From: Bacteroidales bacterium
GTDB lineage: Bacteria; Bacteroidota; Bacteroidia; Bacteroidales; UBA3663
NCBI GenBank assembly: GCA_024694125.1
Contig: JAILKE010000024.1
Coordinates: 5,784-69,783 of the forward strand
Direction: 5' to 3'
Length of the DNA: 64,000 bases
Below are positions 12,244 to 57,053 of the stretch, one piece after another. The notes beneath the pieces are model-generated. The model saw only the letters and a program-made list of their open reading frames with translations, was not told where the DNA came from and searched no databases. The position numbers were made by a program, and so were the translations under genes. The stretch's first letter is position 1, and every line of letters begins with the position of its first letter.

Positions 12244-12456
12244 AAAATTGAAAATTGAAAGTTGAAAATTGAAAGTGAAAGTTGAAAATTGAAAAGTGAA
12301 AATTGAAAATTGAAAGTTGGAAATTGAAAGTTGAAAGTTGAAAGTTGAAAGTTGAAAATTGAAAGTTGAAAATTGCAACCGATTAGCCGATTGTATCGTC
12401 CCTGTCACTTCCTTTTCACTTCCTTTTCACTCCCTTTTCACGTCTTTGTCACTTCC
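12244..12456 (-). repeat. Composite intergenic repeat: 11-mer array, GGGACGATACA anchor, (TTTYCAA-type) 7-mer array
   Basis: About 18 GAAARTT units at 12244-12374, TGTATCGTCCC at 12392-12402, then TCACTTCCTTT 11-mers. Confidence 0.85.
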
Positions 12457-12457
12457 A

Positions 12458-15400
12458 TTATAATTTCACCTTCCCACCGTCGCTGTGTGCGACGAACTGA
12501 GGAGCGTATTGGCTCTGGATAGTGGCGATGCCGAGAGCAAAGGAGCCGGTGTTGGTGACGTGGCAGTCGTAGGTGAGGACGTGGACACCCTTGGGGAGAC
12601 GTTGGATGAAGAAGTTGGTCTGGCTGTCCTTGGTCTCCTGGTAGTAGATGCAGTCCTCCCAACCGTAGTGAGAGAGCTGATCGACAGGTTCGAGGCAGGC
12701 GGGACGCTGGTCCGTGAGGGTGAGATACTCCAGCGCCTTGGAGCAAGTGACCACGAGGCGGACCTGCACCCGCTGGCCGATGGAGAGGTCAGCCTTGCCG
12801 CTGGTGGAGAGGCGGTACCACTGGCCCGCGCGGTCCTGAGCCCACAGCTCCTTGCGGATGGAGAGTTCGCTGACCGACTGGCGCTGTACCTGTTCCATGG
12901 GAGCCTCGTACTGATGGATGACGGCACCCCAGGCAGGGTGATACTGGGCACTGGTCACCTCGATGTGACGTACCGAGTCGGGCAGGTCAATGCGCATGTT
13001 GCCGAGCAGGGCATTGTCCGGTGAGTAGGTGAGAGGACGTCCATTGATGCTGATGCGCAGTGTGCTGGCGGAGTCCGGCTGGTCGTGCACCCAGTCCTGA
13101 CCAGTGCGCAACAGGGCATGGACGGCATCGGCTGCCAGGCTGGAGTTGCCCCAGTCGGAGGTCTGTTTCTCGAGCAACAGCCACTGACGGATGCGCTCTA
13201 TCTGTGAGGCATACTGATGGGGTGCAATCTCGCTGAAGGCATTGAGTATGACAGCGGTATGTGCGACTGGATGCGACCACGGGCCATCGGGCAGACGATC
13301 CCAGTACATGCCGCGCTCCGGATCACTGACTGCCAGCTGCGAGAGACTCTCGACGATGCGTGCGGCTGCCTCGTGCCGACCGGAACGGTGCAGAGTGATG
13401 GCACAGTAGGCACGGTCAGAGAGCGACACCTGACGCCAGTCGTCCTCCATGGCATGGAGCACCTTGCGGCGCAGTTGTTCCGTCTGCTGGCGGATGTGGG
13501 CTGATGCGTAGGGGCGCTGCTGGTCGAAGAGCGTGCAGATATAGGCATAGTCGGCAAAGCAGAGGTAATCGATGCGTTCGCGCCAGCGCTTGCTGTCACT
13601 GAGCCTGTCGAGCACCTCATGGTCCAGATACTGGAGGGCGCGATGGAGCATGTCATCCAGCATCGGGTCACCCTGACGGCAACCCAATAGGCGCATCTCG
13701 CCGAGCAGTTGCACCACTGCTGAGGTGGCCCAGTAGGAGGAATGGAGGTAGTGCGGGTTGGAGCACCACAGGAAGCCTCCATCGGGCATCTGCATCAGAC
13801 GGAGCGCACCGCACAGACGGTTGTAGTCGGCACTGTTCAATGTGGGATTGAGCAGTCGGCCCAGTGCCTGCATCCGCTCCTGCTGCATATCCGCCGCACG
13901 GAGCCAGGGCGATGCCTGGAGCGTACCGACCTTGAGGTCGCTGTTCCGGTAGAGCTGCGAGACCATGGGCAGATGGGGCTGCTGTTCGATGAGCGTGCCA
14001 GCCACACCGAGGGCGAAGAGCTGGTGTGCTATGCCTGTGCTGGTCGAGGCGGGAGCTTGCGCCACGCTGGGTAGTGCCTCGATGCAGTACCAGGTGGGGT
14101 TGCTGCATGCCATCAGCACGCTGCGTGACTGACGGGCGGCGGGGCGATGGACATCGAACGAGATGCTCCTGGTACCTGATGCAAGGAAGAAGGGTTGACC
14201 CTCGATGACCGGTGTGACGCAGGGCAGGACGGGGATGCGCTGCTGCTCGCCGTCGCCATTGCCCTGAGCATCGACCGCCTTGATGCGGAAGCCGATGTAG
14301 GGTTCGGCCGTAGGAGCTGTGCACGAGATGGAAACGGTCTGGGTGCCGCGTGGTTCCAGCCGAACCTGCTGACGGCGGCTGTCCAGGACCTGCTCAGTGC
14401 GCGGGTCGAAGAGTTCGACGAGGACCGAGGCCTGGATGGCCGAGTCCGAGGCATTCTGTACATTGGCCGAGAGTGTTGTCCCGTCGCCTGCACGGAGGAA
14501 CCGCGGCAGGGAGGGTTGTACCATGACGGGACGCTGGGCAACGACCTCGGTATGCCACAGGTCGGTGGCCAGTGACCGGGTGAAAGCCAATGCCTGCAGG
14601 TGCCAGGTGGCATTGTCCGACGGCATATCGAACGTGATCTGTACAATACCCGCCGAATCGGTGGTCAAGGTGGGGCGCCACAGCGCCACGTGCGTCTGGG
14701 TGGAGCGGACGGCTATATCGTCGAACGTAGTCTGGGCAACGGCATTGCCGGCAGCGTCCGCAGTGGACACTGCCACCTTGATTTCCTCGTCGTCATAGAC
14801 CGTGTTGACTTCTGCGGCGCGGGAAGCCCTCTTGGACGACTTGAGCGACAGTCCGGCTATGCGTCCCTGCAGGGCTTCGCCCAGCGAGCGGCGTCCGGAG
14901 CGAGAGCCGACTACTACTGTCTCGCACAGTGCCATGCTATAATCCAAAGCATAGGTGTCATTGAACTCCGGCGGGACGATGCCCATGATGCGGCGTATTA
15001 CTCCATAGAGCGGGTAACGAGACCTGTATTGATAGGTACGACCGTATGAATGTAAAGAGGAATAATGGAAAGAGGTAGAGAGGTAGTCGGGGGCAAACTG
15101 CCACTGATTGGACTGGAGTTGTTCCAGCGCCTTGCTGTAGAGGTCGAGCAGCATTCGGCCCTGTGCCGGACGTCCCTCGGCATCGGTCAGCCGGAGCGTC
15201 CACTGCTGCCTGCTGCCAGCTGCAACATGGTCGCGGAAGGACTGGACATTGATCTTGACCTCATCCCGCAGGGGCGAGAGCAGGGTGGCGGACTGTCGGG
15301 ACAATCGGTCATCTATGTAGCAGATGACCTCGACATTGAGCCGTTCGTCACGTGCGGCAGGCATGTCCAATGTCAGGTCGTGCATGCCGGCAGCAAAGTG

Positions 15401-18073
15401 CTTCCAGCCACGACTGACTATGCCCTGGCGCGACTCGGCTATATAATAGAGATGGAAGGCGCTGTGTGCTCCCACAGGGATGTGCGCCTTGCCGTCGGCC
15501 GTGACCTGCTGCAGGGCAGAGGGCATCCACAACCCCTGGACGCCACGTGGAGCCAACCGGTCAGAGCGGCGGAAGAGGATGACCTCCCGTTCAAAGCCAT
15601 TGTCGGCAGGTTGGCCCTCGACGCGGGCGGACAGGATGTAGGTACCCGACGGAACGGCACTCCAATCGACCGATGGACGCTGGGCTGGGAATGTGCCCTG
15701 ACGGACCAGCTGCCTGCTGCCGGCATCGGTCAGCGTATAGCGGCAGATGACATCGGTGGTGGCGGTGTCGGCACTCTGGTAGGTGATGGGCAATGGGTAC
15801 AGACCCGTGTCGGGCAGGAGCAGGGCTGTCTGGTCGAGCTGGATGCGGCGACTGTGACCGATGCGTATGCTGGTGTGGGCTGTCTGGGTCTCGCCAGCCA
15901 GGTCGGTGCACTGGACATCGACGCTGATACGGAATGCGTCGGAATGAGATGAGTCCTCTATCCAGCCGTAGGGGCATCGGTACTCGAAGTTGCCCTCCTG
16001 GTCGGTAGTGGCAGTGCCGGAGTGTCGGCCCAGATTGCTCCCCCAGAACCACATGCGTGAGGCCTCGAGGTTGCACTGTATGGTGCCGTTGGACACGGGC
16101 AGACCGCTGTAGGACAATGCCTTGCCGCGGATGACGAGCAGGGAGTCGGACCGGGACTGCCCCTGGGGCGTGCCCGACAGATCGACGTAGAAGGTGGGCG
16201 CCTTGTACTCGCTGACCTGGATGAAGTGGGTAGCTATGGCCGAATTGCGCAACCCGGTAGGACTCTCCAGTTCGAGGCGGTATGTGCCGTTCATACGGTC
16301 AGTGGGCAGGGTGAACTGCTCGGTCAGTTGGCCCCAGTCATCGGCAGTGACACTCTTGGCAGCGAGTTTCTTGTGATTGGGGTCGTACAGGGTCAATGTA
16401 TAGAACTTGCCATCGGTGATGAGCCGGCGACTGGTTGTGCCGAGCTGATACAGGATGGCCGTGACGCGGACCTTTTCGCCAGGACGATAGATGGCCAGGT
16501 CGGTGAAAATCTGTGCGCTGATGGGCTCCCAGCGTTGGGGAAACTGTTTGCGCCGCGCATAGTTGGTCCTATCCAATTTGTTCAGATAGATGTCGTCGCC
16601 GCGGTGCAGGATGTAGTAGTAATACGACCCGTCGCAACCTGTGACAGCGCCGTTAAGGTCAGTCGTGCCCTGCATGGGGAATTGTAATTCTGGGTACCGA
16701 GAATACTCGACAGTGACACCCTCCTGCGGGGCTCCGTCCAGCGCATTGATGGCGAAGATGTCGATAGTGTCAGCCGTGCTGACCGCGAAGGTGCGCAGGT
16801 CCGAGACTGTGAATAAGTGATTGCTGGCTCGATTCAAATATTCATCATCATACTTCTTGGGGCACACCCATCGGCCTTGATCATCGCGCAATGAGGTGGT
16901 GGTGAAATAGACTCCGTAGGGTTGTGCCGGGAAAGAGGCGTGGCAGGTCTGCTGGCCAAGGCTGTCGTGATGGACTATAACCTCGTCGATGTATTGTAGC
17001 TGCGATAAGCGGACCTTGTCGAATTTGTTCAACAGCTTGTCCGGCATGCGGTACAGAGTGACCTTACACTCGGCTGCATTGTCGTCCATGAACCTGACGC
17101 TGACGGAGATGTCCTGACGTGAAGTGTAGCAGGGGTGGATTTCGGTCTCGACATTGGCTATGTCCCATATATCGATTTGGTTCTGGACATAGGGGGTGAA
17201 GGGGGAACGGGGATAGGCCGCAACGTAGCGCTGACAGTCGTCGTACGATGTCTGTCTGTGCATTCCAGACCCATGCAGGGTGTAGAGCAGACCGACTTCG
17301 GGTTGATTGCGATACTGGGCAATGAGTGAGTCTATGTCCTGCTGGTTCCAGTCCGAAGTGTTGTAGCTGATGTAGATGCGGGGATAGAGACTCTGGTCCT
17401 GGGCGTGGACATTGAGCCACTGCATACGCAGGTCCTTCCGCTGTGACTGTGGATGGGAGGGAAGGGTGGAGAATTTCTTTTCGGCCAACAAATCGAACAG
17501 ATAGGGCATGCAACGTTGTCCCCATTCATCGCCGGGATGGACGATGCCCTGATAGTGGGTACAGGGCTGCATCAGTGCCGATATGTCGCCATTGCCCAAC
17601 GGGTCGAGCGCACGGTCAAGGAAGGCGTCCCGAAGACTGTCCCTGCGGGAACTGCTCCACCGGGTAATGTCGTCGCTCTCATCATCTCCTTTCTCCAAAC
17701 TGAACCACATATTAGCATATCGGTTGAGTAACTCGCTCTTGTAGTAATAGAGTATAGCATTGTAATCGGGTGAAAGATGTCCTACCTGCATCACGGAATC
17801 AATCACGGTGAGTGCACTGCCGAGGTTCCGCTCTGAGATGTAGATGCGCGACTTGCCAATCTGCATGGCCGCCAGGACGATATCGTGCTGGTTGCCCTCC
17901 CGGAGGGCCTGGTGCAATGCCACGTAGGCATTGGCCTCGACCTCCCTGGGAAAATCGAAGTCGGGTTTCTGGAACGTGTTGGCTGCCTGGACGTCGGACA
18001 TAAATCCGCTCAATACTATGGTAAGCGTGAGGATTGATCTGGTAATATGTTGTAATGCCTTCATAATAGTCAT
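12458..18073 (-). CDS. Bacterial alpha-2-macroglobulin family protein
   Basis: FTDLAIYRPGE (MG2), QVSEYKAPTF, PSLPRFLRAGD and DQRPACLEP motifs; 1871 aa with a signal peptide. Confidence 0.92.
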   Translation of the reverse strand: MTIMKALQHITRSILTLTIVLSGFMSDVQAANTFQKPDFDFPREVEANAYVALHQALREGNQHDIVLAAMQIGKSRIYISERNLGSALTVIDSVMQVGHLSPDYNAILYYYKSELLNRYANMWFSLEKGDDESDDITRWSSSRRDSLRDAFLDRALDPLGNGDISALMQPCTHYQGIVHPGDEWGQRCMPYLFDLLAEKKFSTLPSHPQSQRKDLRMQWLNVHAQDQSLYPRIYISYNTSDWNQQDIDSLIAQYRNQPEVGLLYTLHGSGMHRQTSYDDCQRYVAAYPRSPFTPYVQNQIDIWDIANVETEIHPCYTSRQDISVSVRFMDDNAAECKVTLYRMPDKLLNKFDKVRLSQLQYIDEVIVHHDSLGQQTCHASFPAQPYGVYFTTTSLRDDQGRWVCPKKYDDEYLNRASNHLFTVSDLRTFAVSTADTIDIFAINALDGAPQEGVTVEYSRYPELQFPMQGTTDLNGAVTGCDGSYYYYILHRGDDIYLNKLDRTNYARRKQFPQRWEPISAQIFTDLAIYRPGEKVRVTAILYQLGTTSRRLITDGKFYTLTLYDPNHKKLAAKSVTADDWGQLTEQFTLPTDRMNGTYRLELESPTGLRNSAIATHFIQVSEYKAPTFYVDLSGTPQGQSRSDSLLVIRGKALSYSGLPVSNGTIQCNLEASRMWFWGSNLGRHSGTATTDQEGNFEYRCPYGWIEDSSHSDAFRISVDVQCTDLAGETQTAHTSIRIGHSRRIQLDQTALLLPDTGLYPLPITYQSADTATTDVICRYTLTDAGSRQLVRQGTFPAQRPSVDWSAVPSGTYILSARVEGQPADNGFEREVILFRRSDRLAPRGVQGLWMPSALQQVTADGKAHIPVGAHSAFHLYYIAESRQGIVSRGWKHFAAGMHDLTLDMPAARDERLNVEVICYIDDRLSRQSATLLSPLRDEVKINVQSFRDHVAAGSRQQWTLRLTDAEGRPAQGRMLLDLYSKALEQLQSNQWQFAPDYLSTSFHYSSLHSYGRTYQYRSRYPLYGVIRRIMGIVPPEFNDTYALDYSMALCETVVVGSRSGRRSLGEALQGRIAGLSLKSSKRASRAAEVNTVYDDEEIKVAVSTADAAGNAVAQTTFDDIAVRSTQTHVALWRPTLTTDSAGIVQITFDMPSDNATWHLQALAFTRSLATDLWHTEVVAQRPVMVQPSLPRFLRAGDGTTLSANVQNASDSAIQASVLVELFDPRTEQVLDSRRQQVRLEPRGTQTVSISCTAPTAEPYIGFRIKAVDAQGNGDGEQQRIPVLPCVTPVIEGQPFFLASGTRSISFDVHRPAARQSRSVLMACSNPTWYCIEALPSVAQAPASTSTGIAHQLFALGVAGTLIEQQPHLPMVSQLYRNSDLKVGTLQASPWLRAADMQQERMQALGRLLNPTLNSADYNRLCGALRLMQMPDGGFLWCSNPHYLHSSYWATSAVVQLLGEMRLLGCRQGDPMLDDMLHRALQYLDHEVLDRLSDSKRWRERIDYLCFADYAYICTLFDQQRPYASAHIRQQTEQLRRKVLHAMEDDWRQVSLSDRAYCAITLHRSGRHEAAARIVESLSQLAVSDPERGMYWDRLPDGPWSHPVAHTAVILNAFSEIAPHQYASQIERIRQWLLLEKQTSDWGNSSLAADAVHALLRTGQDWVHDQPDSASTLRISINGRPLTYSPDNALLGNMRIDLPDSVRHIEVTSAQYHPAWGAVIHQYEAPMEQVQRQSVSELSIRKELWAQDRAGQWYRLSTSGKADLSIGQRVQVRLVVTCSKALEYLTLTDQRPACLEPVDQLSHYGWEDCIYYQETKDSQTNFFIQRLPKGVHVLTYDCHVTNTGSFALGIATIQSQYAPQFVAHSDGGKVKL

Positions 18074-18158
18074 GTGAATAGGGGATGATGAATAAACGGG
18101 ACTTGCTGAAGGACGGGCTGACGTCGGTCCCTCGCAAATCCCGTAGGTTGAGATTGTC

Positions 18159-19352: not shown

Positions 19353-19913
19353 ATTTTGTATTTTGATTATTTACAAATTTTATTTGGTGATATATGAAAT
19401 TTCAGAGAACTATTTCCCCTTGAGGCAATCCTTGATGCAAGTCTCAACTGTAGCAAGGGTGTTGTCAATGTCAAAGAGTACCTGAGCATTGGTGAAACGA
19501 AGCACTCTGTATCCTAATGATTCCAGCCACTGTTGCCGCAGGCTATCGTCCATCTCTTGTGTCCGTTCAGAATGGTATCCTCCATCTATCTCAACGATAA
19601 GCTGGGCATCTCTGCACAGAAAATCGACTATATAATCGCCTATGATGTGTTGACGTACGAATTTGTGTCCCAGTGATTGTCCCTTGACACAATACCAAAA
19701 GACTTTCTCTGCATCAGTCATATTCTCGCGGTTCTCACGCGCAAATGCTCTCAGCAGTTCATATCTGTCCGAACTTGCGGTACGCCAATTCATAGCCTAT
19801 TCTGTTTCTTTTGTAGAAGCCCCTTGATTGAGGCGACCGTAACGGTTTACATAATCAGAGACGACAGTATGTGGTAACTCAAGTCCCCCTAAGCAGGGGG
19901 ATTTAGGGGGTCT
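19287..19913. mobile_element. DUF559 cassette bounded by about 30-bp palindromic inverted repeats
   Basis: AGACCCCCTCTTATCCCCCTGTTTAGGGGGA (19287-19317) matches the reverse complement of 19884-19913, AGACCCCCTAAATCCCCCTGCTTAGGGGGA. Confidence 0.6.
19410..19793 (-). CDS. DUF559 (Vsr-like) endonuclease domain protein
   Basis: ARENRENMTDAE, FVRQHIIGDYIVDF, VEIDGGYH and GYRVLRFTN. Confidence 0.92.
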   Translation of the reverse strand: MNWRTASSDRYELLRAFARENRENMTDAEKVFWYCVKGQSLGHKFVRQHIIGDYIVDFLCRDAQLIVEIDGGYHSERTQEMDDSLRQQWLESLGYRVLRFTNAQVLFDIDNTLATVETCIKDCLKGK

Positions 19914-31657: not shown

Positions 31658-31843
31658 AATCGCATCAATTTTTCTCAAATGGCACGACTTTCTTCGTCGT
31701 GTGAGCAGCGTTTTCGTCAGAATTTCGAGAAAGAATTTGATTGGATTACGTTCAACAAGTTTTATCTGTCGATGTTACCATTGAAACGCATAGCCATAGC
31801 TATTGATCCAAGCTACATAACCAAATCCGGCAAATGTACACCG
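31658..31843 (+). pseudogene. DDE transposase fragment (IS701/IS4-like, Bacteroidetes type)
   Basis: RINFSQMAR...CEQRFRQNFEKEFD...IAIAIDPSYITKSGKCTP, truncated on both sides. Confidence 0.65.
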
Positions 31844-31896
31844 GTTTACTTTTCGACCATTTTTGCAGTACAATTGTTATTTATTGAGAATTCAAA

Positions 31897-32040
31897 ACGC
31901 GGTATATTTGCTAGAGCAAATATACCTTCTGTCGCACCTTCGGCGCTCGATACAATCTCCTACGTGCTACTGTGGGAAGCGGGGGCTCACGCCCCCGCCT
32001 GTATTCCCGCACACCTTCGGCGTGCTGCCTAACTGGAAAC
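31897..32040 (-). repeat. Multi-hairpin REP-like element, copy 3
   Basis: Same family as 6225-6367 and 10811-10953, with compensatory stem changes. Confidence 0.85.
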
Positions 32041-32393
32041 AGAGGAAAGAAAATGGTTAAGGGTCGTTATAGTTTAAGGTTTAATGGAGAACACAGTGAA
32101 GCAATATTTGGAATGTTTGAAGTCTCACAAAAAGGCGGTGTTATTAATGTAATTCAAGTTTCGCAAGTTTCCAACTTGCTCACTTTCAGCAAAGAAGGGG
32201 AGTAAGGAAAATTAAAAATTTATAGTTAAGAATTAAAAATGGGTAGTAAAAGTGACATTTGCTATTACTGGCGGGAGTTTTCAGGGATTGTTTGTATCGT
32301 CCCTTTTACTCCCCTTTTACTACTTTTTTTAGCCTTTCCCTACTCTCAACTGGAGCTTGCGAAAGTTGAGTAAATAATTTTGAACAACTACTT

Positions 32394-32432
32394 AAAAAGC
32401 TCCCTCCCTCGGAACAATCCGGGGGAGGGAGC
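32394..32432 (-). terminator. Intrinsic terminator downstream of glnA
   Basis: GCTCCCTCCC...GGGAGGGAGC hairpin followed by a T-run on the minus strand. Confidence 0.75.
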
Positions 32433-32688
32433 GCTGCTAAATACAGATAAAAAGTGTAACAATGACTTCGGGGGAATAGCTGCAATGGAGCATCCAGAGT
32501 CGGTAGGGAGTAGTCATCCAGCCCATGGTAAGACTACTGGGTATCGGCCTGTGGCTCACGTTGCAGAGCCTATGTGAGGAGGTGTGGTCCCGTCTGTAGC
32601 CGTCCAGCCCTTGGCACAGGAACGGGGTACCGCCAGACTTCGGCGCAGGTTGCCGCTTGGGGAGGTTCGGATTGGGGGGTACCTCCTA

Positions 32689-39897: not shown

Positions 39898-40130
39898 TTA
39901 AGGTATTGTTTAATTTCGTAGGGACTCAGATTGGGAAAACTATTTTAATAATAAGGAGTTAAAGGAGACAGTAACGGCAATAAAGTCAATGACTATAGGA
40001 ACGTCAATGATGTAAGGAACGATAGTAACGACACTACTCATTACTCTCTACCCTTTACTCATTACCCATTACTCTTTACTCATTACCCTTTACTCATTAC
40101 TCTCTATTCCCTACACAAATATTTACTATT

Positions 40131-41384: not shown

Positions 41385-41651
41385 TCGCTCTGGAGAGCGA
41401 ACGGTTGTAAAATTAAAAGTTAACAATTAAAAATTACCCTTCGGCGCGATGCCTTTGGCAATTATAATTAAAAGTTAACAATTAACAATGAAAAATTAAT
41501 TCCCCGCGGAAGATTCTTTAAAAATAAAGGAGTTAACGGGCAATGAAATAACTTGCATTAGGGAAAATGGATTAAATCACGGATTGTCCGTTAACTTCTA
41601 TTTTACTATTAACTACTCTTTATAAATTACTCTAAACAATTGAATTGCGTT

Positions 41652-42341
41652 ATGAAAAAGTATATGGTTATCATGCTGGCAGCTGCCATGGCAGTTGCAG
41701 CCGAAGCACAAGATAAGACAGAGGTTACATTGGGCACCGACTTGGTGAGCAGTTATATATGGCGTGGACAGGAACTGGGCGACGTGAGCCTGCAACCTGC
41801 ATTGGGTGTGAGTCGCGCAGGACTGAGCCTCTCTGCCTGGGGAAGTGTCGGACTGTCAGACCCATCGGATGCCAAGGAGTTGGACCTGACCCTGGCCTAC
41901 AGCGTGGGCGGACTGAACGTAGGTGTGACCGACTACTGGTTCAGCGTCGGCAACTACTTCGACTACGCCGCACACACCACTACCCATGTGTGGGAGGCCA
42001 ATGTAGGTTACGACTTCGGTCCCCTCAGTGCACAGTGGTACACCAACATAGCCGGCGATGACGGTGTCAACGAGGATGGCGACCGCGCCTACTCCAGCTA
42101 CCTCGAACTGGCTGCACCCTTCACCCTGGGTGAAGTGGACTGGACCGCTTCGGTCGGAGTCGTACCCTTTGCCACCTCGTTCTATGGTACCGACGGCTTT
42201 GCAGTGACCCACCTCGGTCTGCGAGCCTCCAAGCAGCTCAGCACCTCGGAGAGTTTCTCGCTCCCCATTTACGCTGGCTTGTCGGCCAATCCTTGCAGCG
42301 AGCGGATGTACTTCTACGTAGGCATCAGCCTGGGTCTGTGA
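41652..42341 (+). CDS. Outer-membrane beta-barrel protein (TorF/Gcw_chp-like putative porin)
   Basis: Signal peptide, DLVSSYIWRG, ELDL, TDYWF, alternating beta-strand pattern and C-terminal YVGISLGL. Confidence 0.7.
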   Translation: MKKYMVIMLAAAMAVAAEAQDKTEVTLGTDLVSSYIWRGQELGDVSLQPALGVSRAGLSLSAWGSVGLSDPSDAKELDLTLAYSVGGLNVGVTDYWFSVGNYFDYAAHTTTHVWEANVGYDFGPLSAQWYTNIAGDDGVNEDGDRAYSSYLELAAPFTLGEVDWTASVGVVPFATSFYGTDGFAVTHLGLRASKQLSTSESFSLPIYAGLSANPCSERMYFYVGISLGL

Positions 42342-42713
42342 CCCGCCCGCCTCAGTTCATCGCACCTCACAGTCACCCACGGGGTACTGTGAGGTATCGA
42401 TGACAGTGCGAACGGTCCGCCGTTGCTACCCGATCAGAGTACGCTTCGTGTACGATGAGGTAGGGATGACCAATCGCACACCAATCGCATTCCAATCGCA
42501 CACCAATCGCACTCTCAACGTAGGGACAGCGCATTGGTTATTGTAGCAGATTGGACCAATAAACAGTCATGAAAAACCTGTAACAGGAAATATAGATAAA
42601 AAATGTAATTAATAATCGGAACATAGAACCCTTGGTCCTTTGTACTTAGTAACTTGGTCCTTTGTACTTAGTAACATGGTCCTTTGTACTTTGTTCCTTA
42701 GTCCCTTAAAATT

Positions 42714-44417
42714 ATGTGTGGTATAGCTTGTATATTGGACATTGATGACCAGACCCCGCAGTTGCGGCAGAAGGCACTCCGAATGAGTCAGAAGATCCGT
42801 CACCGCGGACCAGACTGGAGCGGCATCTACGTCGGACCATCAGCCATATTGGCCCATGAGCGACTCAGCATCGTGGACCCAGTTTCCGGAGGGCAGCCCC
42901 TCTATTCGCCCGATCGTCGTCAGGTACTTGCCGTCAATGGAGAGATATACAATCACCGCGAGATACGACGCACGTTGGCTGGACGGTACGAGTTCAGTAC
43001 CGGTTCGGACTGCGAGGTCATACTGGCGCTCTATCGCCAGTGGCGTGAGCAGGGAACCGACGATGCGACCTGGCTCTTCGAACAGCTGAACGGCATCTTT
43101 GCCTTCTGTCTGTACGACGAGGAGACCGACCAGTACCTGGTGGGCCGAGATCCTATCGGCGTCATACCGCTCTACATTGGGCATGACAGCGAGGGCCGAT
43201 GCTACGTGGCATCGGAGCTGAAGGCGCTCGAGGGATTCTGCGACACATACGAACCCTTCCTGCCCGGCCATTACTACAGCAGCCGGAGCAAGAAACAGAC
43301 ATGTTGGTATAAGCGCGACTGGATGACTTGGCGTCCAGAGTCGTCCAGCCGCCAGCCAACTTATCAAGAGAGCGTGACGGCAGTGCACGATGCACTCGAG
43401 GCAGCCGTCAAGCGTCAGCTGATGTGCGATGTCCCCTACGGCGTATTGCTGTCGGGCGGACTGGACAGTAGCGTCACATCGGCCATTGCGATGCAGTACT
43501 CACAGCGCCGCATCGAGAGCAATGACACCGAACATGCCTGGTGGCCACGGCTGCACTCCTTTGCCGTGGGACTGAAGGGTGCACCTGACCTGGCCAAGGC
43601 CCGCGAGGTGGCCGAACATATCGGTACGGTGCATCACGAGATCAACTACACGATACAGGAGGGTCTGGATGCCATCCGCGACGTGATCTATTATATCGAG
43701 ACGTACGATGTCACCACCGTGCGTGCCTCGACCCCTATGTACCTGCTGGCCCGTGTCATCAAGTCGATGGGCATCAAGATGGTCCTGTCCGGCGAGGGTG
43801 CCGACGAGGTCTTCGGCGGGTATCTCTATTTCCACAAGGCGCCCGATGCACGCGAGTTCCACGAGGAGACGGTGCGCAAACTGGGCAAACTCTATCAGTA
43901 CGATTGCCTACGCGCCAACAAGTCGCTTGCTGCATGGGGCATCGAGGGCCGAGTACCATTCCTGGACAAGGAGTTCCTGGACGTAGCCATGTCGGTGCCT
44001 GCCGAGCACAAGATGTGCCCTGGCAAGACCGTCGAGAAGAAAGTGGTGCGCGATGCCTTCTCGTCCATCCTGCCCGAGAGCGTGGCATGGCGTCAGAAGG
44101 AGCAGTTCTCCGACGGCGTGGGTTACTCATGGATCGACACCCTGAAGGAGATTACCTCCGCTGCCGTCACGGACGAGCAGATGGCACACGCCGCCGAGCG
44201 TTTCCCCATCAACACTCCTATGTGCAAGGAGGAGTATTACTACCGCTCTATCTTCGAGGAGCATTTCCCCTCCGAGAGCGCAGCCCGCTCCGTACCTCAC
44301 GAGGCGAGCGTAGCCTGCTCTACAGCCAAGGCCCTCGAATGGGATGCCCGCTGGAAGAACATGAACGAGCCGTCGGGTAGAGCGGTAACGGACGTTCACT
44401 CGGCTGCTGCCGAGTGA
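42714..44417 (+). CDS. asnB: Asparagine synthetase B (glutamine-hydrolysing)
   Basis: MCGI, RHRGPDWSG, NGEIYNH, LLSGGLDSS and SGEGADE. Confidence 0.97.
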   Translation: MCGIACILDIDDQTPQLRQKALRMSQKIRHRGPDWSGIYVGPSAILAHERLSIVDPVSGGQPLYSPDRRQVLAVNGEIYNHREIRRTLAGRYEFSTGSDCEVILALYRQWREQGTDDATWLFEQLNGIFAFCLYDEETDQYLVGRDPIGVIPLYIGHDSEGRCYVASELKALEGFCDTYEPFLPGHYYSSRSKKQTCWYKRDWMTWRPESSSRQPTYQESVTAVHDALEAAVKRQLMCDVPYGVLLSGGLDSSVTSAIAMQYSQRRIESNDTEHAWWPRLHSFAVGLKGAPDLAKAREVAEHIGTVHHEINYTIQEGLDAIRDVIYYIETYDVTTVRASTPMYLLARVIKSMGIKMVLSGEGADEVFGGYLYFHKAPDAREFHEETVRKLGKLYQYDCLRANKSLAAWGIEGRVPFLDKEFLDVAMSVPAEHKMCPGKTVEKKVVRDAFSSILPESVAWRQKEQFSDGVGYSWIDTLKEITSAAVTDEQMAHAAERFPINTPMCKEEYYYRSIFEEHFPSESAARSVPHEASVACSTAKALEWDARWKNMNEPSGRAVTDVHSAAAE

Positions 44418-44590
44418 ACAAAGGAAGTGACAAAGAAGTGACAAGGAAGTGACAGGGAAGTGACAAGGACGAATGAAACTACCTAATTGGAAAAGTAATT
44501 TGTAAACTAACTTTTTGTACTTTGTATTTCTAACTTTTTGTACTTTGTACTTTGTCCCTTTGTCCTTAATCCAAGGTTCCTTTGTCCTTA
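44418..44590 (+). repeat. Composite intergenic repeat (AAGGAAGTGAC 11-mers, degenerate anchor, CTTTGTA 7-mers)
   Basis: Four GAAGTGACA units, AGGACGAAT at 44466-74, then a TTTGTAC/TTTGTCC array. Confidence 0.75.
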
Positions 44591-49121: not shown

Positions 49122-49123
49122 TC

Positions 49124-49154: not shown

Positions 49155-49181
49155 GATTCTTCTCAGTTTATAATATTTACT

Positions 49182-50528: not shown

Positions 50529-50695
50529 AAGTTAAGAGTTAATAATTAAGAGTTAAAAGTTAAGAATTAAAAATTAAAAGTGATTACCCTCCCTTTGGAG
50601 TAAGTTAAAATTTAAAGGTGATTTTTTTCCTTAACTTCTACAGATATATACGATTACATTTTTATTTCTTACTGCAATATCTTTATTATGCGTTG

Positions 50696-50739
50696 GCGCG
50701 CAGGGCGGCTTGGTGCCGGTCTGCGCGCTCTTCTTTTTT
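50696..50739 (+). terminator. Intrinsic terminator after gltD
   Basis: GCGCGCAG...CTGCGCGC stem followed by TCTTCTTTTTT. Confidence 0.7.
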
Positions 50740-50883
50740 GACTGATTTATAGTCGGGTTCTTCTTGCAATTGAGGTCGATTTTCTCCTTTTTTTCAATTA
50801 CACCATTGAAGTGAGCAAGTTGAGAAGACTTGTTCACTTCATTTTTCATTTTCAACTTTCAATTTTCAACTTTCAATTTTCAA

Positions 50884-53800
50884 TTAGTTTACGGCTTGGT
50901 ACAGGCGTATCATAGCCTGGAGGGCATCATATTGATGTTGGGCCAATGTCTGTTGCGCCGAGAGCAGGTTCTGTTGGGCCGAGAGAATCTCCAGATAGGT
51001 GGTCGATGAGTGCTGCATCAGGCGGGTAGTCTGATCGACGGCACGTTGCAACAGGGCTACGCGCTGCAGGTCATCCTCAACCAGGTGTCGGGTGGTCTGG
51101 CACAGAGACAATGCCGAACGGGTAGCTTCGCCTGCCGAGAGCAGCGCCTGGCGGAAGGAGAGCAGTGCCTCCTGCTGTTGCGCCTTGGCTATCTTCAGGT
51201 TGGCGCGGTTGGCACCCTGGGCAAAGAGCGGTTGCGTCAGTCCTGCCAGCAGGTTCCATATCATCTCGCCTGGATTGGCTACCGAGCCGGTTCCATCCAC
51301 GGTCCACTGACCATTGGCGGACAGCGTCAGTTTGGGGTAGAAGGCGGCGCGTGCAGCATTGACGGCGTAGAAGCATTGGCGCAGTTCCGCCTCGGCTACC
51401 ATCACCTCGGGGCGCGATGCCAGGTCCATCAGTGCCACGCCTTGCAGGGGTTCCACACGCAGCACCTGGCTGTCTATGTCGGACCGCTCTATGTGTCGTG
51501 GCGTCCAGCCCAGCAGGGTGCAGAGCGATGCCTCGGTGTCGGCGAGCGTCTGCTGCACGTCGAGCAGCGTCTGGTGCAGCGCCAGACAGGCAGCTTCGGC
51601 CTGCAGTACAGCTACTTCGGTGGTCATGCCTGCCTCCTTCATGCGGCGCAGCATCTCGGCATTACGCTGCCAGTTGGCGAGTGTGGCTTGGTCTATCTCG
51701 CACTGGCGGTCCAGCAGCAACAGCAGGTAGTAGTGTTGTGCCACGGTACCTATGACCGATGTCTGGGTGGCGTGGCACTGCGCCATGCGGGCAGCCAGCA
51801 GGGCCGATGCGCCGCGGTGGGCATTGGTCTGCGCGCCCCACAGGGGCAGTTCCCACGATGCCACAGGTCCTATCGTATTGTGATGCTCAGGGCGGAATCC
51901 GTCCTGGGCATATATATTGGCCTGAGCTTGCAGTGAGAGCGTAGGCAGGTACTGGAGCCGACGTGTGCTGAGGGTGGCTTGAGCCTCCTCCACGCGCAGT
52001 CGGGCTATGCCCAGGTCGGCATTGCGGACCAATGCGGAGTCTATCAGTTGCTGCAGCAGCGGGTCGGTGTATATGTTGTGCCATTGGGCCGATGTGAGGC
52101 TGTCCGTCTCCGCTACGGGATAGCCAGGTGTGGCGGTGGCATTGTCCGATAGCTCTTCGGCGAGTTGCTGCATCTCGGCTGGCCGTTGGTACTTGCCGTA
52201 CAGGCTGCATCCCGACAGCGAGAGCGAGGCAGCCACACAGAGCGGCACCATGATCCACGAGGCGAGATTGCGCTGCGGCATACGTTCCTGCAGACGTTGC
52301 ATCAGGACGAACAGCACCGGTACCACGAAGAGCAGCGCCAACGTACCGATCATCATGCCGCCCACGGTACCTATGCCCAACGAACGGTCGCCGTTGGCGC
52401 CGGCACCCGAGGCAAAGCACATAGGCAGCAGACCGAAGACCATCGTCAGTGAGGTCATCAGGATAGGGCGCAGACGTACCTGCGTGGCATCCAGGGCGGA
52501 CTCCTCGATGGTCATGCCCGATGCACGGCGCTGCGAGGCGTACTCGGTGAGCAGGATGGCAGTCTTGGACAACAGTCCTATCAGCATGATGATACCGGTC
52601 TGCATGTATATATTGTTCTCGATGCCGAATATCCTGGCGAACAGGAACGAGCCAGCCAGGCCGAACGGCACGCTGAAGATGACCGCCAACGGGATGCACA
52701 GACTCTCATACAGTCCGCACAGTATCAGGTAGATGAAGATGGTACAAGCCACGAACACCCATGCCGTGTTGCTGCCCTTCTGCTCGTTCTCCTCGCGCGA
52801 CATACCGCTGAACTCGTAGCTGTATCCCTCGGGCAGTGTCCGGGCTGCTACCTCGCGGATGGCCTTGATACATTCGCCCGATGAGTATCCCTCGTTGGGC
52901 ACGCCGTTCACGCGTATGGCATTGAACATATTGAAGCGGGTCAATGACTCGGAGCCGTAGGTCTTCTTCAACACTGTGAACTGTCCGACAGCGAGCATAT
53001 CGCCCGATGACGAGCGCACATAGAGACGGTCCAGGGCGGAGCGGTCCATGCGTATGTCGGGGTATGCCTGCACCATGACGCGGTACAGTTTGGAGAATCG
53101 GATGAAGTCCGATACATAGTTGCCGCCCACATAGCCCGATATGACATTGAGCACGTCATCCGGGTCAACGCCCATGCGTTTGCATCGCACCACGTCAACA
53201 TCAAACAGGTATTGGGGATAGTTCATGGCGTAGCTGGTCTGGGCACGGGCTATCTCAGGACGCTCGTTCAGTCCCTGAATCAGGTCGCGCGTATAGCGGT
53301 CCAGTTCCTCCCACGTGCTGCCTTTCTTGTCCTGCACATAGAGGTCAAAGCCGTTGGACGAGCCGTAGCCCGATATCACCGGTTGGCCCTGGATGAGCAG
53401 TTTGGTATCCTTGATGTGGTCGGTCAGGGCGTAGATGCGGCGTTGGACAGCCTCGATGCTGTGTTCCTTGCCCTGGCGCTCGTCCCAGTTCTTCAGGCGT
53501 ATGGTGAACTGGGCGTTCGATGCACCTTGGCCCGAGTTCTTGCCGGCACCCAGTATGATGGAGTATGCCTTGATCTCCTCGACCTGTTTCAGGCATTGGT
53601 CCACCTCATCGACAGTGCGCTTGGTCTCGGTCATGGTGCTGCCTGGAGCGCCCTGTATGCTCAATGTGAGCGAACCCATGTCCTCGCTGGGCACCAGTCC
53701 GGTCTTGGTATTGTCCAATAGATAGGCGAAGACGCCGATGGCCAGCAGTGTACTGCCCAGCACGATGACCTTGTGGCGCAGACATAGTTGCACGCCGTTG

Positions 53801-55398
53801 CTGTATGCACGCAGCAGCCGGTCGAAGTAGAGATTGAATATCCTGCGCATACGGGCCGATGGACTGCGGCGCGACTGGCGTTGTTCCGTTGCTTCGTCCG
53901 CAGGCACAGCCTTCAGTATCAGGCTGCACAGCATGGGGGAGAGGGTCAATGCATTGACCAGGGACAATGCCACTGCCACAGCCATGGTGACGCCGAACTG
54001 GCGGTAGAAGACACCCGACGTACCTCCCAGGAAGCACACCGGCACGAACACAGCCATGAAGACCAGTGTCGAGGTGAACAGTGTGACGGACAGTCCCTTC
54101 ATCGCGCCGATGGTGGCGCGGTAGGGCGATGTTTCGCCGTCGTCCATACGAGCCTTGACCGCCTCGACCACGACGATGGCATCATCGACCACGGTGCCTA
54201 TCACCAGCACCAGGGCAAAGAGGGTCAATGTGTTGATGCTGTATTCCGCCAGGTACATGAAGATGAACGTACCGACCAGCGATACCAGTATCGTGATGGC
54301 GGGAATGAGCGTGGAGCGCATGTCCTGCAGGAAGACGAAGATGATCAATATCACCAGCAGTACTGCCAATATCAGCGTGATGACAACCTCGCGGATAGAG
54401 GCATCGACGAAGTCCTTGCTCGACTGCAGGTCTATCATCACCAGTCCGTCGGGCAGTTCGGCGCGGCACTCCTCCAGCACCTTGTCGATACGTTCGATGG
54501 TGGCATTGGCGTTCGAACCTGGCGTCTGCGATATGGAGCAATGGGTGCCTGGGTGACCGTTGACCTGCGTCTGCAGTGTGTATTTGAGCGATCCCAGTTC
54601 CACGTCCGCCACGTCGGCTATGCGCAGCACCTGTCCGTCGGGCAGCGCCTTGATGACCAGTTGTGCGAATTCCTCCGGTTTCTCATACCTGCCGCGGTAC
54701 TTGAGCGTGTATTGGAAAGTCGATTCCGAGTCTTCGCCCAGCGTACCCGTGGCAGCCTCCATGTTCTGCTGGTCCAGCACGGTACGTATGTCCGATGGCA
54801 TCAGTCCGTATGCCGCCATCTTGTCGGGCTTCAGCCACAGGCGCATCGCATATTCCGGACCATGCACATTGACCTCGCCCACGCCATCGACACGGTTCAG
54901 GCGGGGTTCGATGTTGATGCGCATATAGTTGTTGATGAAGTCGGAGCCGTAGCGGTCGTCCGGGCTGTACATTGCTATCTGTTTCAGGGGCGATGACTGG
55001 CGACGGCGCACCGTCACACCGCTCTGCTTGACGTCGGCAGGCAGTTTGGTCTGTGCCTGCGATATGCGGTTCTGCACATCGACGTGAGCTATCTTCGGGT
55101 CTGTTCCCTGTTCGAAGACGATGTCTATGTTGGCCTTGCCGGTATTGGTTGCCGAACTGGTCATATAGGTCATGTGCTCCACGCCGTTGATGGCCTCTTC
55201 CAGGGGCACGATGACGCTCTTGAGTACGGTTTCGGCATTGGCGCCGGTGTAGTTGCAGTTCACGTTGATGGTAGGTGGTGCTATCTGCGGGAACTGTTCT
55301 ACCGGCAATTGCCAGAAACATACGGCTCCGACCAGCAGTATCATCACCGAGATGACACCGCTCAATATGGGTCGGTCTATGAAGGTCTTGACGGTCAT
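50884..55398 (-). CDS. RND (HAE1/AcrB-like) permease fused in frame to a NodT/OprM-type outer-membrane factor
   Basis: Residues 1 to about 1040 are AcrB-like (FIDRPI, GTVVDDAIVVVE, RLRPILMTSL). Lipobox LSGC at Cys1064 is followed by OMF motifs (DPLLQQLIDSAL, RPEV, YLEILSAQ). Confidence 0.9.
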   Translation of the reverse strand: MTVKTFIDRPILSGVISVMILLVGAVCFWQLPVEQFPQIAPPTINVNCNYTGANAETVLKSVIVPLEEAINGVEHMTYMTSSATNTGKANIDIVFEQGTDPKIAHVDVQNRISQAQTKLPADVKQSGVTVRRRQSSPLKQIAMYSPDDRYGSDFINNYMRINIEPRLNRVDGVGEVNVHGPEYAMRLWLKPDKMAAYGLMPSDIRTVLDQQNMEAATGTLGEDSESTFQYTLKYRGRYEKPEEFAQLVIKALPDGQVLRIADVADVELGSLKYTLQTQVNGHPGTHCSISQTPGSNANATIERIDKVLEECRAELPDGLVMIDLQSSKDFVDASIREVVITLILAVLLVILIIFVFLQDMRSTLIPAITILVSLVGTFIFMYLAEYSINTLTLFALVLVIGTVVDDAIVVVEAVKARMDDGETSPYRATIGAMKGLSVTLFTSTLVFMAVFVPVCFLGGTSGVFYRQFGVTMAVAVALSLVNALTLSPMLCSLILKAVPADEATEQRQSRRSPSARMRRIFNLYFDRLLRAYSNGVQLCLRHKVIVLGSTLLAIGVFAYLLDNTKTGLVPSEDMGSLTLSIQGAPGSTMTETKRTVDEVDQCLKQVEEIKAYSIILGAGKNSGQGASNAQFTIRLKNWDERQGKEHSIEAVQRRIYALTDHIKDTKLLIQGQPVISGYGSSNGFDLYVQDKKGSTWEELDRYTRDLIQGLNERPEIARAQTSYAMNYPQYLFDVDVVRCKRMGVDPDDVLNVISGYVGGNYVSDFIRFSKLYRVMVQAYPDIRMDRSALDRLYVRSSSGDMLAVGQFTVLKKTYGSESLTRFNMFNAIRVNGVPNEGYSSGECIKAIREVAARTLPEGYSYEFSGMSREENEQKGSNTAWVFVACTIFIYLILCGLYESLCIPLAVIFSVPFGLAGSFLFARIFGIENNIYMQTGIIMLIGLLSKTAILLTEYASQRRASGMTIEESALDATQVRLRPILMTSLTMVFGLLPMCFASGAGANGDRSLGIGTVGGMMIGTLALLFVVPVLFVLMQRLQERMPQRNLASWIMVPLCVAASLSLSGCSLYGKYQRPAEMQQLAEELSDNATATPGYPVAETDSLTSAQWHNIYTDPLLQQLIDSALVRNADLGIARLRVEEAQATLSTRRLQYLPTLSLQAQANIYAQDGFRPEHHNTIGPVASWELPLWGAQTNAHRGASALLAARMAQCHATQTSVIGTVAQHYYLLLLLDRQCEIDQATLANWQRNAEMLRRMKEAGMTTEVAVLQAEAACLALHQTLLDVQQTLADTEASLCTLLGWTPRHIERSDIDSQVLRVEPLQGVALMDLASRPEVMVAEAELRQCFYAVNAARAAFYPKLTLSANGQWTVDGTGSVANPGEMIWNLLAGLTQPLFAQGANRANLKIAKAQQQEALLSFRQALLSAGEATRSALSLCQTTRHLVEDDLQRVALLQRAVDQTTRLMQHSSTTYLEILSAQQNLLSAQQTLAQHQYDALQAMIRLYQAVN

Positions 55399-55417
55399 AA
55401 TTCAAATGGAATTTTTT

Positions 55418-55548
55418 AAGGGGAGTAAAAGGGGAGTAAAAGGGGAGAGAAAAGGGAGTAAAAGGGACGATACAATCTCCTGCGGGGATGCCCTTTGTCA
55501 CTTTGTACTTAGTCTCTTTGTCACTTTGTACTTTGTCCCTTTGTCACT
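55418..55548 (+). repeat. Composite intergenic repeat (AAGGGGAGTAA 11-mers, GGGACGATACA, hairpin, CTTTGTM 7-mers)
   Basis: Visible directly; anchor at 55464-55474. Confidence 0.85.
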
Positions 55549-56644
55549 TATCCAAGACTTTTGTTCCGTTCTTTACCAGTCCGGCTCCCTTGGCGATGAT
55601 GACGTCACCGGCTTTCAGTCCTTGGTGCACGATACAGTTGCGGCCGTCGTCGGAGATGCTCACCTGCAGCAGCGTCTGTGTGGTGAGGCCATCCACGATG
55701 CGGTAGCAGAACGTCTTGTCCTGCATCTCGAATGTAGCGGCGCGAGGGATGATGATGGCCGAATCGTAGTAAGTGGGCAACAGCAACTGGCCGCTGCCGC
55801 CGTTGCGTAGCAGACCGTCGGGGTTGTCGAATGCGGCGCGCACCTGCACAGCGCCGGTACTCTGGTCTATGGTGCCGCTCACTGCATCGATGCGTCCCGT
55901 GTGGTCGAAGCGTTTGCCGTTGCTCATCAGCAGGCTCACTTCGGGCATGGATTGGATCAATGCTTCGTTCGAACCATATTGTTCCGTCAGGTCCAGCATC
56001 TGGCTCTCGCTCAATGATATATAGGCGTGTATGGTGCGGTCGTCACTCACCGTGACGAGAGGATTGCTGCTGCTCGATACCAGGTCACCCACGCGGTAGG
56101 CTATCATGCCCGTCACGCCGTTCACTGGGCTGCGTACCTCGGTGTATGACAGGTCCTGGCGAGCCTTGACCTGTTGTGCCTGTGCCATAGCCAGGGTTGC
56201 TTCGGCGCTCGCCAGGGCGTTCTGTGCCGACATCAGGTCGTAGTCCGATACGATGCTGTCCCTGTGCAGTGCCTCACGGCTCTCGCAGTGCATGCGCGCA
56301 GTTGCCACTTCTGCCTCGGCGCTCTTGACTTGTGCTTCGGCTTGGCGCAATGCTGCCTGGTAGGGCACCTGGTCGATGACGAAAAGGCACTGCCCTGCAC
56401 GCACATAGGCACCTTCCTCGATGCATATGCGCGTCAGTGTACCCGCTATCTGGGGTCTGACCGATACGTGTTGCTGGCCTCGGAGTGTCGCTGGGTAGCG
56501 GCTCTCGGAGGTATAGTTGCTCAATGTGACGGTGAGTGTTTCATATTGGGCATTGTCTCCTTTGTCTGCCTGTTCCGGCTGGCACGAGGTAAGTGCGACT
56601 CCTGTCAACAGGGCTGCACTGATGGTATATAACAGATGGTTCAT
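55544..56644 (-). CDS. RND efflux periplasmic adaptor (MFP) lipoprotein
   Basis: Lipobox LTSC, VRPQIAG, EGAYVRAGQ, YTEVRSPVNG and AFDNPDGLLRNG. Confidence 0.93.
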   Translation of the reverse strand: MNHLLYTISAALLTGVALTSCQPEQADKGDNAQYETLTVTLSNYTSESRYPATLRGQQHVSVRPQIAGTLTRICIEEGAYVRAGQCLFVIDQVPYQAALRQAEAQVKSAEAEVATARMHCESREALHRDSIVSDYDLMSAQNALASAEATLAMAQAQQVKARQDLSYTEVRSPVNGVTGMIAYRVGDLVSSSSNPLVTVSDDRTIHAYISLSESQMLDLTEQYGSNEALIQSMPEVSLLMSNGKRFDHTGRIDAVSGTIDQSTGAVQVRAAFDNPDGLLRNGGSGQLLLPTYYDSAIIIPRAATFEMQDKTFCYRIVDGLTTQTLLQVSISDDGRNCIVHQGLKAGDVIIAKGAGLVKNGTKVLDK

Positions 56645-56856
56645 TTAGAACAATGATATTGATATCGGAGTTAATAAGAATGATATCGGCGTTATTAGTT
56701 TAAAATCTGAATTAATTAAAATGAGAGGTACTTGTTTCTGTATGTTAACAGTCTGATGTATGTGTGTCAAAAACTTCGTAATTCCCGTTTGTGTTAATCG
56801 CTGCAAAGATATGGAAAAAAAATTAAGTAAGCAAGAGTTTAAGGGAATTTTTTAAA

Positions 56857-57053
56857 AAGAAGTGACAAGGAAGAGACAAGGAAGCTAAAAAAAGAAGTGA
56901 CAAGGAAGTGACAGGGAAGTGACAAAGAAGTGACAGGGACGATAGTTTCATCCGGATGGGAACCATTTTTAATTTTTATCTTTTAATTTTTAATTATCAA
57001 AAGTATTTTGTATCGTCCCTGTCACTTCTTTGTCACTTCCCTGTCACTTCCTT
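56857..57053. repeat. MITE-like pair of composite repeats; perfect 43-bp inverted repeat (56902-56944 / 57011-57053)
   Basis: AAGGAAGTGACAGGGAAGTGACAAAGAAGTGACAGGGACGATA and its exact reverse complement flank a 66-bp spacer. Confidence 0.88.

Follow-up and report, generated by a model that had tools for sequence, protein, structure and literature searches.

The stretch of DNA analysed here (the window) comprises 64,000 nucleotides of a contig from an uncultured Prevotellaceae bacterium, whose metagenome-assembled genome (MAG; G000) amounts to 2.97 Mb in 102 contigs and is 79% complete. Five gaps between genes in this window (A2M-like/TauE, hypothetical/GSIII, asnB/gltB, MFP/RND and GH43/MFP; loci 1 to 5) are occupied by composite repeats, and the flanking genes are ordinary and functionally unrelated. 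An earlier reading of the letters alone (the original prediction) had described at these loci a polar element consisting of an 11-mer array, a constant anchor, a small hairpin and a 7-mer array, and all five were present, with matching sequences, at the positions it gave. Read on the anchor strand, each element starts with a purine-rich arm of 1.9 to 7.2 units of 11 nt, with the words AAGGAAGTGAC, AAGGAAGTGAA or AAGGGGAGTAA. The arm is closed by GGGACGATAC/G, exact at four loci (five copies) and degenerate at locus 3 (GGACGAATG), and past this anchor follows an array that is rich in T or in pyrimidines and has a period of 7, 8 or 23. The exact motif GGGACGATA occurs five times in the window, always inside these loci; with at most one mismatch there are 21 matches, those five included. 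With moderate confidence we regard the loci as copies of a lineage-expanded, non-coding mosaic repeat family of the fold-back or MITE kind (MITE for miniature inverted-repeat transposable element).

Tandem arrays were called with Tandem Repeats Finder. At locus 1, on the minus strand, an arm of 4.7 units of AAGGAAGTGAM (period 11; 12405..12456) begins 1 nt past the stop codon of the alpha-2-macroglobulin-like gene. It is followed by the junction, as we also call the anchor, GGGACGATAC (12393..12402) and by 19 units of a T-rich 7-mer, TTTTCAA/CTTTCAA (12244..12375), which end about 15 nt from the TauE gene start; this is a one-armed copy, without an inverted partner arm. Locus 2 (32152..32371, minus strand) is a complete copy of a MITE subfamily, here named family A. 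It extends from a terminal inverted repeat (TIR), ATTCAAGTTTCGCAAGT (32152-32168), to an imperfect inverted partner reading GCTTGCGAAAGTTGAGT on the plus strand (32355-32371), and its interior holds 1.9 copies of the 11-mer (32301-32321), the anchor (32295-32303), a core, GTCAC with an inverted arm, and 4.7 copies of an AT-rich 7-mer as an insertion (32208-32240). The arm of locus 3, on the plus strand, consists of 4.7 units of AAGGAAGTGAC (period 11; 44413..44466) directly after the asnB stop codon, and precedes the degenerate junction GGACGAATG (44467..44475) and pyrimidine-rich right-hand arrays, CTTTGTA/CTTTGTCC (44495..44590, with a period-7 call at 44514-44567).

Locus 4 lies on the plus strand, antisense to the MFP-RND operon, and is composed of 4.5 units of AAGGGGAGTAA (period 11; 55418..55466), the junction GGGACGATAC (55464..55473) and a pyrimidine-rich right array, CTTTGTCA/CTTTGTAC, with a period of 8 or a 23-nt super-unit (55491..55549, with the array call at 55493-55549). 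At locus 5 a left arm of 7.2 units of GAAGTGACAAG, ending in GGGACGATAG (56859..56945, plus strand; period 11 called at 56859-56939), is separated by a core (56946..57009), which includes an AT-rich 7-mer array at 56965-56995, from the inverted junction GTATCGTCCC and a right arm (57010..57051, minus strand; period 11, 3.3 copies at 57016-57051). A sixth, degenerate copy, absent from the list of the original prediction, consists of GGAACGATAG followed by TTACTCA/TTACCCT 7-mers (40016..40103, plus strand).

The association between anchor and arrays and their fixed polar order, both claimed from these few loci, extend to the whole genome. The host holds 92 exact GGGACGATA sites, 62 of them with the arm-end prefix GWRAMA; the reversed pattern, the control used for anchor motif counts, gave 0. 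Among 257 GGACGATA sites, 91 follow a purine-rich 11-periodic 44-mer, which was our criterion for an arm, against a background of 4797 of 532313 intergenic strand-positions (0.9%). An array beginning 8-120 nt past the anchor was found at 53 of these 91 armed anchors and at 768 of 5000 random intergenic positions. The periods of the 53 arrays were 7 (n = 20), 11 (n = 18), 9 (n = 8) or other (n = 7); the 7-mer array thus follows the anchor in some copies but not as a rule, being one of several downstream types. On the anchor strand 39 of the 53 arrays contain more than 60% pyrimidine and 5 less than 40%, which makes the polarity a real and general feature. The small hairpin had to be abandoned as a constant module: the DNA folds of the three hairpins named had z-scores of -3.63, -1.04 and -0.29, so that one of them beats shuffles, and the 30 nt past the 91 anchors showed no enrichment (mean -1.89 kcal/mol versus -1.66 for shuffles). 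Copies between two called genes favour co-directional pairs (59/74, versus 838/1357 intergenic regions overall), in which they show no orientation bias (25 sense versus 34 antisense), and they often occupy the entire stop-to-start gap.

Of the 174 purine-rich 11-periodic arrays of the host genome, 65 end in GGACGAWA and a further 43 in a different GGACR variant. Most of these 43 carry GGGACGTTTG (GGGACGTTTGCT), the purine-strand form of the right inner end ...AGCAAACGTCCC. A complete copy is laid out as arm, GGGACG-ATAC, core, AAA-CGTCCC and inverted arm. In our reading the family plan begins with a purine-rich arm and the invariant junction RGGACGATAS; a core that varies comes next, then ...AAACGTCCC (...AGCAAACGTCCC) and, inverted, a pyrimidine-rich arm. 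The arm period is 11 in the host and 9-11 elsewhere. On direct reading, arm units at the outer end shade into AAGGAATTTTA, and the anchor itself serves as the innermost unit (AGGGACGATAC versus AGGGAAGTGAC). Several of the 7- and 8-mers on the right-hand side (TTTACTC, CTTTGTCA) are contained in reverse-complemented 11-mers, which suggests that words such as TTTACTC could be contracted arm units. At 27 of 89 armed anchors there is an inverted partner arm whose score exceeds the 95th percentile of the reversed-arm control. The two arms of locus 5 form a near-perfect fold-back (-53.4 kcal/mol, z -11.99). The two long inverted arms of a fold-back element are lacking at loci 1, 3 and 4, which are one-armed or hetero-armed and whose folds do not beat shuffles.

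Smaller palindromes were observed within some elements. A mini-element of about 60 bp (GCCCCTCGCTAAAG...GCGAGGAC) is nested in arms or cores in the host (C52:6500-6870, C73:43520-43880 and C98:5900-6400) and in its congeners G042 (L057) and G053 (L150, L151 and L167), and the left arms of the latter two genomes hold a second small nested hairpin (GTAGAGACG...CGTCTC).

Family A, to which locus 2 belongs, comprises 15 complete non-coding copies of 192-249 bp, and the pairwise identity of the 12 standard-length copies is 85-99% (mean 91%). Each is bounded by the 17-bp TIR ATTCAAGTTTCGCAAGT and by a partner that is inverted and imperfect, ACTCAACTTTCGCAAGC as read on the anchor strand; inside are arms, anchor, core and inverted arms. 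The copies are flanked by AT-rich direct duplications of 8-10 bp (target-site duplications, TSDs), which match at no fewer than 8 of 9 positions in 5/15 copies versus 1.4% of cross-copy control pairs; by eye, they measure 10-11 bp on contig C99 and 10 bp on C49. With TIRs, a TSD and a small, non-coding, multi-copy body, family A has these hallmarks of a MITE. Copies of the family lie at three contig ends, and the ATTCAAGTTTCGCAAGT TIR pair also brackets minimal 44-62-bp hairpins as well as unrelated cargo.

The family is not confined to the host. Among 38 other species of the genus, at least 10 matches to RRARGGACGATAS were present in 10 (G053 41, G042 38, G051 22, G022 20, G013 17, and others), with at most 4 for the reversed control in every genome; a stricter pattern was present in 12 of 24 congeners and in 1 of 16 genomes of other families. 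The copies of G053 and G042 share their arms, junction, right inner end and family A TIRs with those of the host. In a survey of the order the TIR was found in at least 118 stretches, with matches that include Segatella copri, Bacteroides faecis, Muribaculaceae and Alloprevotella, and 80 loci with 82 TIR copies (L170-L249) were inspected. RGACRATAS lies at most 170 nt from the TIR in 8 of 65 copies, versus 1 for the reversed control, and the arms between the order-level TIR and the junction are built from other words of period 9-11, for example GGAGTTAAA and GGAGTGTA. A constant junction combined with varying unit words, which had been noticed within the window, was thus borne out across species and families.

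Comparison with G052, the closest of the species compared, whose coding DNA is 70-82% identical, revealed a rapid turnover; most intergenic regions of the host cannot be aligned with it. Both genomes have the 9-mer GGACGAATG at the asnB-gltB junction, between different arm words. The A2M-TauE junction (locus 1) holds no such element in G052, and the junction 3' of GH43 holds two copies with GGAGTTAAC arms there. A recurrent composite of G052, made up of an 11-mer arm, GGACGATAG, a core and TTTACTC-type 7-mers, has the same polar order as in the host. Where G052 element junctions have collinear flanks in the host, 2 of 9 hold a related element in the latter. Two junctions of about 220-265 nt (L350 and L353) are filled in G052 and measure 18 and about 24 nt in the host, and elements are therefore gained or lost as blocks. 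In the wider comparison of orthologous junctions that had been suggested, the asnB-gltB anchor is common to the host and G052; for MFP-RND only 2 of 38 relatives are syntenic, too few for a comparison. Upstream of gltB, for which 32 congeners had a match, asnB-gltB synteny is kept in 1 of 29 relatives' loci (L014-L042).

Strains differ in array length. The region is covered by contigs from three runs of another study, whose flanks are about 98% identical; record 26 of X4 bridges locus 4 as a whole (54955-55627), and X2 and X3 contigs carry a clean 23-nt deletion, one super-unit, at 55512 in its right array. Since locus 4 is bridged by contigs of another study, its arrays are no assembly artefact, a possibility that the original prediction had raised against itself. 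The k-mer depth on arms is 10-100 times that of the flanks, fitting a multi-copy repeat. The centre of locus 5 (56921-57024) was bridged by no contig piece among those listed. An inversion at this locus was considered and dropped, the single 'opposite strands' joint in one X2 contig being too weak.

Several further observations touch on these relatives and on other arrays. At a contig end of the host, 497 nt (C10:38268-38764) are 95% identical to C85 of G052, coding DNA being otherwise 65-90% identical; the stretch adjoins an arm array, and recent exchange or a binning issue is possible. The GGAGTTAAC arm type dominates two orthologous junctions in G052, and a copy of this variant (ggagttaacGGGCAATG ... 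TTGTCCGttaacttc) lies in the window at 41386-41735. Another constant-flanked 11-mer family, ACCAATCGCAC after GGGATGACC, is found at 42469-42512, and CAGCGTAAGTG arrays are organised likewise. In the congener G049 (L056) TauE is bracketed on both sides by short two-armed copies; in the window it has locus 1 upstream.

The host genome is rich in tandem arrays in general. Its intergenic DNA contains 849 arrays with periods from 5 to 24, the counts peaking at 7 (265) and 11 (210); they occupy 540 of 1455 intergenic regions (37%) and 43 kb in total. The genome thereby displays the over-represented intergenic arrays of 5-11-nt units that define the long simple sequence repeat (LSSR) and heptamer class. 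The density is 40.7 arrays per 100 kb, against 10.6 in the anchor-free G050 (169 kb sampled) and 11.8 in the anchor-rich G042 (400 kb sampled), about a quarter of the host value in both. The arm-anchor family and the bloom of 7-mers are therefore separable, and it is their overlap in the host lineage that gives the composite look. Two Pfam domains of mutL had no match in this 79% complete MAG; MutS (two paralogues) and RecJ are present, and mutL was found in four congeners.

Taken together, these data describe a dispersed family with a conserved junction, TSDs, presence or absence of whole blocks and array-length variation between strains. The original prediction had favoured dispersed mobile repeats over independent slippage, and the TSDs of family A, the filled and near-empty states of L350 and L353 and the conserved junction side with it. 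The mechanism that we propose is as follows. Copies would be mobilised in trans by a transposase, probably of the DDE type, and after insertion each arm may behave as a minisatellite whose units are gained, lost, shortened (from 11 to 7 or 8) or replaced through slippage and unequal recombination. Long palindromes would be trimmed, so that most copies would lose the complementarity of their arms but retain the purine-to-pyrimidine change over the core. Such trimmed copies would read as the polar composite of 11-mer, anchor and 7-mer, an effect that the genome-wide bloom of period-7 and period-11 intergenic arrays may amplify in the host.

Several findings weigh against this proposal. A partner arm is lacking in 62 of the 89 armed copies, and neither locus 3 (whole-locus z -0.49) nor locus 4 folds better than shuffles. 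The two arms of an element are each other's best match in 2 of 34 elements only; hairpin maintenance is therefore no general constraint, and concerted evolution of arms, which we had entertained as a general rule, was dropped. The decay from a fold-back ancestor is something we infer. Copies without TIRs, which are the majority, had no recognisable TSD. As to an autonomous partner, no recurrent gene was seen among 59 open reading frames (ORFs) beside the TIR copies at the 80 inspected loci, which were judged by eye, without a family scan, those recognised being housekeeping genes; nor did any pair of TIRs lie more than 700 bp apart among the 82 copies, in MAG assemblies that may collapse insertion sequences. 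The filled and near-empty junctions do not distinguish gain from precise loss without an outgroup. Finally, the junction is conserved among genomes whose neutral intergenic DNA cannot be aligned, which pure selfish decay alone fails to explain.

The conserved junction could have other reasons. It might serve the host, junction and helically phased units being binding or architectural sites, or the G-rich arms (AAGGGGAGTAA) forming G-quadruplexes that modulate neighbouring genes. Eleven base pairs approximate one helical turn and three 7-mers (21 bp) two turns, the period peaks are sharp, copies favour co-directional gene pairs, and the junction persists in genus and order as the arms turn over; type-2 arms of at least 4 units also fit the G3+N1-7 quadruplex rule as given in the available part of PMC4692102. 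We nevertheless consider a host function unlikely, since sense and antisense copies are about as frequent, presence differs at orthologous junctions of related species, the flanking genes are functionally unrelated and no candidate binding protein is known. An action at the RNA level, as intrinsic terminator, mRNA stabiliser or small RNA, appears very improbable. Some copies (loci 1 and 5) do combine a weak hairpin with a T-rich run, and many span the whole gap between stop and start codons, but the same lack of orientation bias applies, post-anchor hairpins are not enriched, and among the two-armed copies in co-directional pairs the sense strand folds better in 12/27 and the antisense strand in 15/27. 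An intrinsic terminator, which calls for a stable gene-oriented hairpin and a U run, was rejected on these grounds, and no Rfam family reached its gathering score in the window. In-place slippage at a pre-existing conserved motif, with likeness between loci maintained by gene conversion and no transposition, would agree with the strain variation in array length, the roughly fourfold array density of the host and the mutL that was not found in this incomplete genome. This account is improbable in our view: the TIR subfamily has TSDs, entire elements occur or are missing between neighbouring genes, the identical composites of several parts turn up at unrelated loci, and G052 has mutL yet many arm arrays. 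Mismatch repair is, besides, weak on loops of 7-11 nt, which also counts against slippage.

Another candidate is the single Y1_Tnp gene of the host (151 aa; L001 1486-1941), an HUH enzyme resembling the REP-associated tyrosine transposases (RAYTs), which could move the elements in the manner of repetitive extragenic palindromic (REP) sequences and of REPINs (REP doublets forming hairpins), with CGATAC at the junction as recognition or cleavage site. Within about 60 nt of its stop codon GTATCGTCC and some 13 arm units begin, and inverted copies of family C, a three-hairpin repeat of about 105 nt with some 35 copies in the host, lie on both sides of it; the G-U-type mismatches of family C are all on one strand. 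Family C and the armed elements have the 14-mer CGATACAATCTCCT in common; of its 32 copies 18 are in family C and 8 follow arms, the other 6 being elsewhere. But the arm array stands on one flank of the gene only, and Y1_Tnp was unmatched in four of five anchor-rich relatives (G053, G051, G022 and G013, 83-90% complete), with weak matches in G042. Homologues occur in 7 of 38 congeners without relation to anchor counts, and the closest orthologues (G043 and G046; 57-59% identity) have family-C-like hairpins alongside, not arms or anchors. The arms are moreover tandem arrays, with CGTC at the arm inner end beside the core, and differ from the 20-40-bp palindromes with an unpaired GTAG or CGTC tag described in the accessible text of PMC3733652. 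We therefore doubt that this enzyme moves the elements; family C is probably its REPIN-type partner, and the anchor copy next to the gene is, in our reading, a neighbour or a chimera. Family C copies lie in the window at 31928-32033, ~6262-6370 and ~10850-10960. The best Rfam match at E <= 1 in 31700-32600, Acido-Lenti-1, is sub-threshold (29 of 37 bits, E 0.00019) and lies on family C, outside the element under study.

The original prediction had also considered empty sites of small-gene cassettes. Of 23 ORFs enclosed by neighbouring copies 20 were scanned, all but the separately annotated MFP gene and two short ORFs; 16 belong to ordinary families, including LuxS, QueC, QueF, dNK, Adk, IspF, GH77 and GH10, 4 had no match at E <= 1e-5, and none belongs to a nuclease, recombinase or transposase family. 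Integron-like cassette sites were accordingly rejected, the integrase scan being limited to these ORFs. It is conceivable, if improbable, that the junction (R)GGAC(G/A)ATA(S) is the recognition or nicking site of a putative dedicated enzyme that initiates strand-asymmetric tandem arrays and extends them outward from the core. This would make it a genuine repeat-generating system, and the fourfold bloom of period-7 and period-11 arrays would reflect its activity or de-repression.

As dispersed repeats of the fold-back or MITE kind, the elements illustrate the speed at which intergenic DNA is rebuilt in gut and rumen Bacteroidales, and the family, whose design and 17-bp end recur in Segatella copri, Bacteroides and many rumen and gut Prevotellaceae, may widely shape that DNA in important gut bacteria. 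They break short-read assemblies, their arrays are hypervariable strain markers of the variable-number tandem repeat type, and copies within operons could alter expression. As cultured carriers exist, the origin of bacterial short-unit arrays of periods 7 and 11 becomes testable. Among the papers listed for the TIR, anchor and arm strings none was relevant, the matches being unrelated primers, and topic searches yielded no report of the family either; the supplementary MITE catalogues of PMC11602168 may already list the TIR family. The elements are real and abundant and represent a variant of the MITE/fold-back class that is apparently undescribed, with a conserved junction and fast-evolving tandem arms.

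Among known systems, the BrickBuilt MITE of Porphyromonas gingivalis, which according to the available part of its description carries a single internal 23-nt array that a leader and a tail enclose, is likewise a dispersed, intergenic, non-coding element of the Bacteroidales with a variable array, constant flanks, small inverted-repeat ends and tens of copies (PMC4596501). The present elements differ from what is described there in having two opposed arrays (period 11, 9, 8 or 7) that flank a constant junction and a variable core, and their TIR, junction and unit sequences are unrelated to it. Foldback elements have inverted arms built of short tandem units, which differ in number and sequence from copy to copy, around a variable centre. 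Foldback and Galileo transposons of Drosophila have, in the portions of the reports at hand, long and internally repetitive TIRs (PMC3573991, PMC4079207), and inverted tandem-unit arms that vary by copy around a variable centre are found here too. Those transposons are, on the same partial accounts, eukaryotic and kilobase-scale, and some of their copies encode a transposase, unlike the present elements of 130-400 bp, for which no coding copy was found and whose arm complementarity is mostly lost.

Cyanobacterial short tandemly repeated repetitive (STRR) sequences are a related class of arrays. The heptamer repeats TAACTGA (PMC4679880) and GGGNATC of Xanthomonas and Nostoc (PMC4692102), as well as the LSSR of Mrazek 2007 as summarised in PMC4679880, agree with the arrays studied here, as far as the accessible sections go, in being intergenic arrays of 5-11-nt units with a preference for period 7 and for co-directional gene pairs and with variable copy number. 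In those sections they are single-word arrays, whereas differing words and periods stand here in a fixed order at a constant junction, with TIRs and TSDs present in one subfamily. REPs, in the text available, are 20-40-bp hairpins with stems of 8-9 bp and an unpaired GTAG or CGTC tag (PMC3733652), and the REP, bacterial interspersed mosaic element (BIME) and REPIN systems with their RAYTs resemble the situation in the host by their abundant intergenic palindromic or mosaic repeats, among which a single-copy Y1 gene lies here (PMC3733652, PMC3116915). Compared with these partial descriptions, the elements in the host have arms that are tandem arrays, and anchor abundance does not track the Y1 gene across relatives. 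BOX of Streptococcus pneumoniae is a modular non-coding element with variable internal tandem modules between constant ends, its boxB unit measuring 45 bp; the present elements are equally modular, with variable tandem modules, but are distinguished from BOX by two opposed arrays around a junction.

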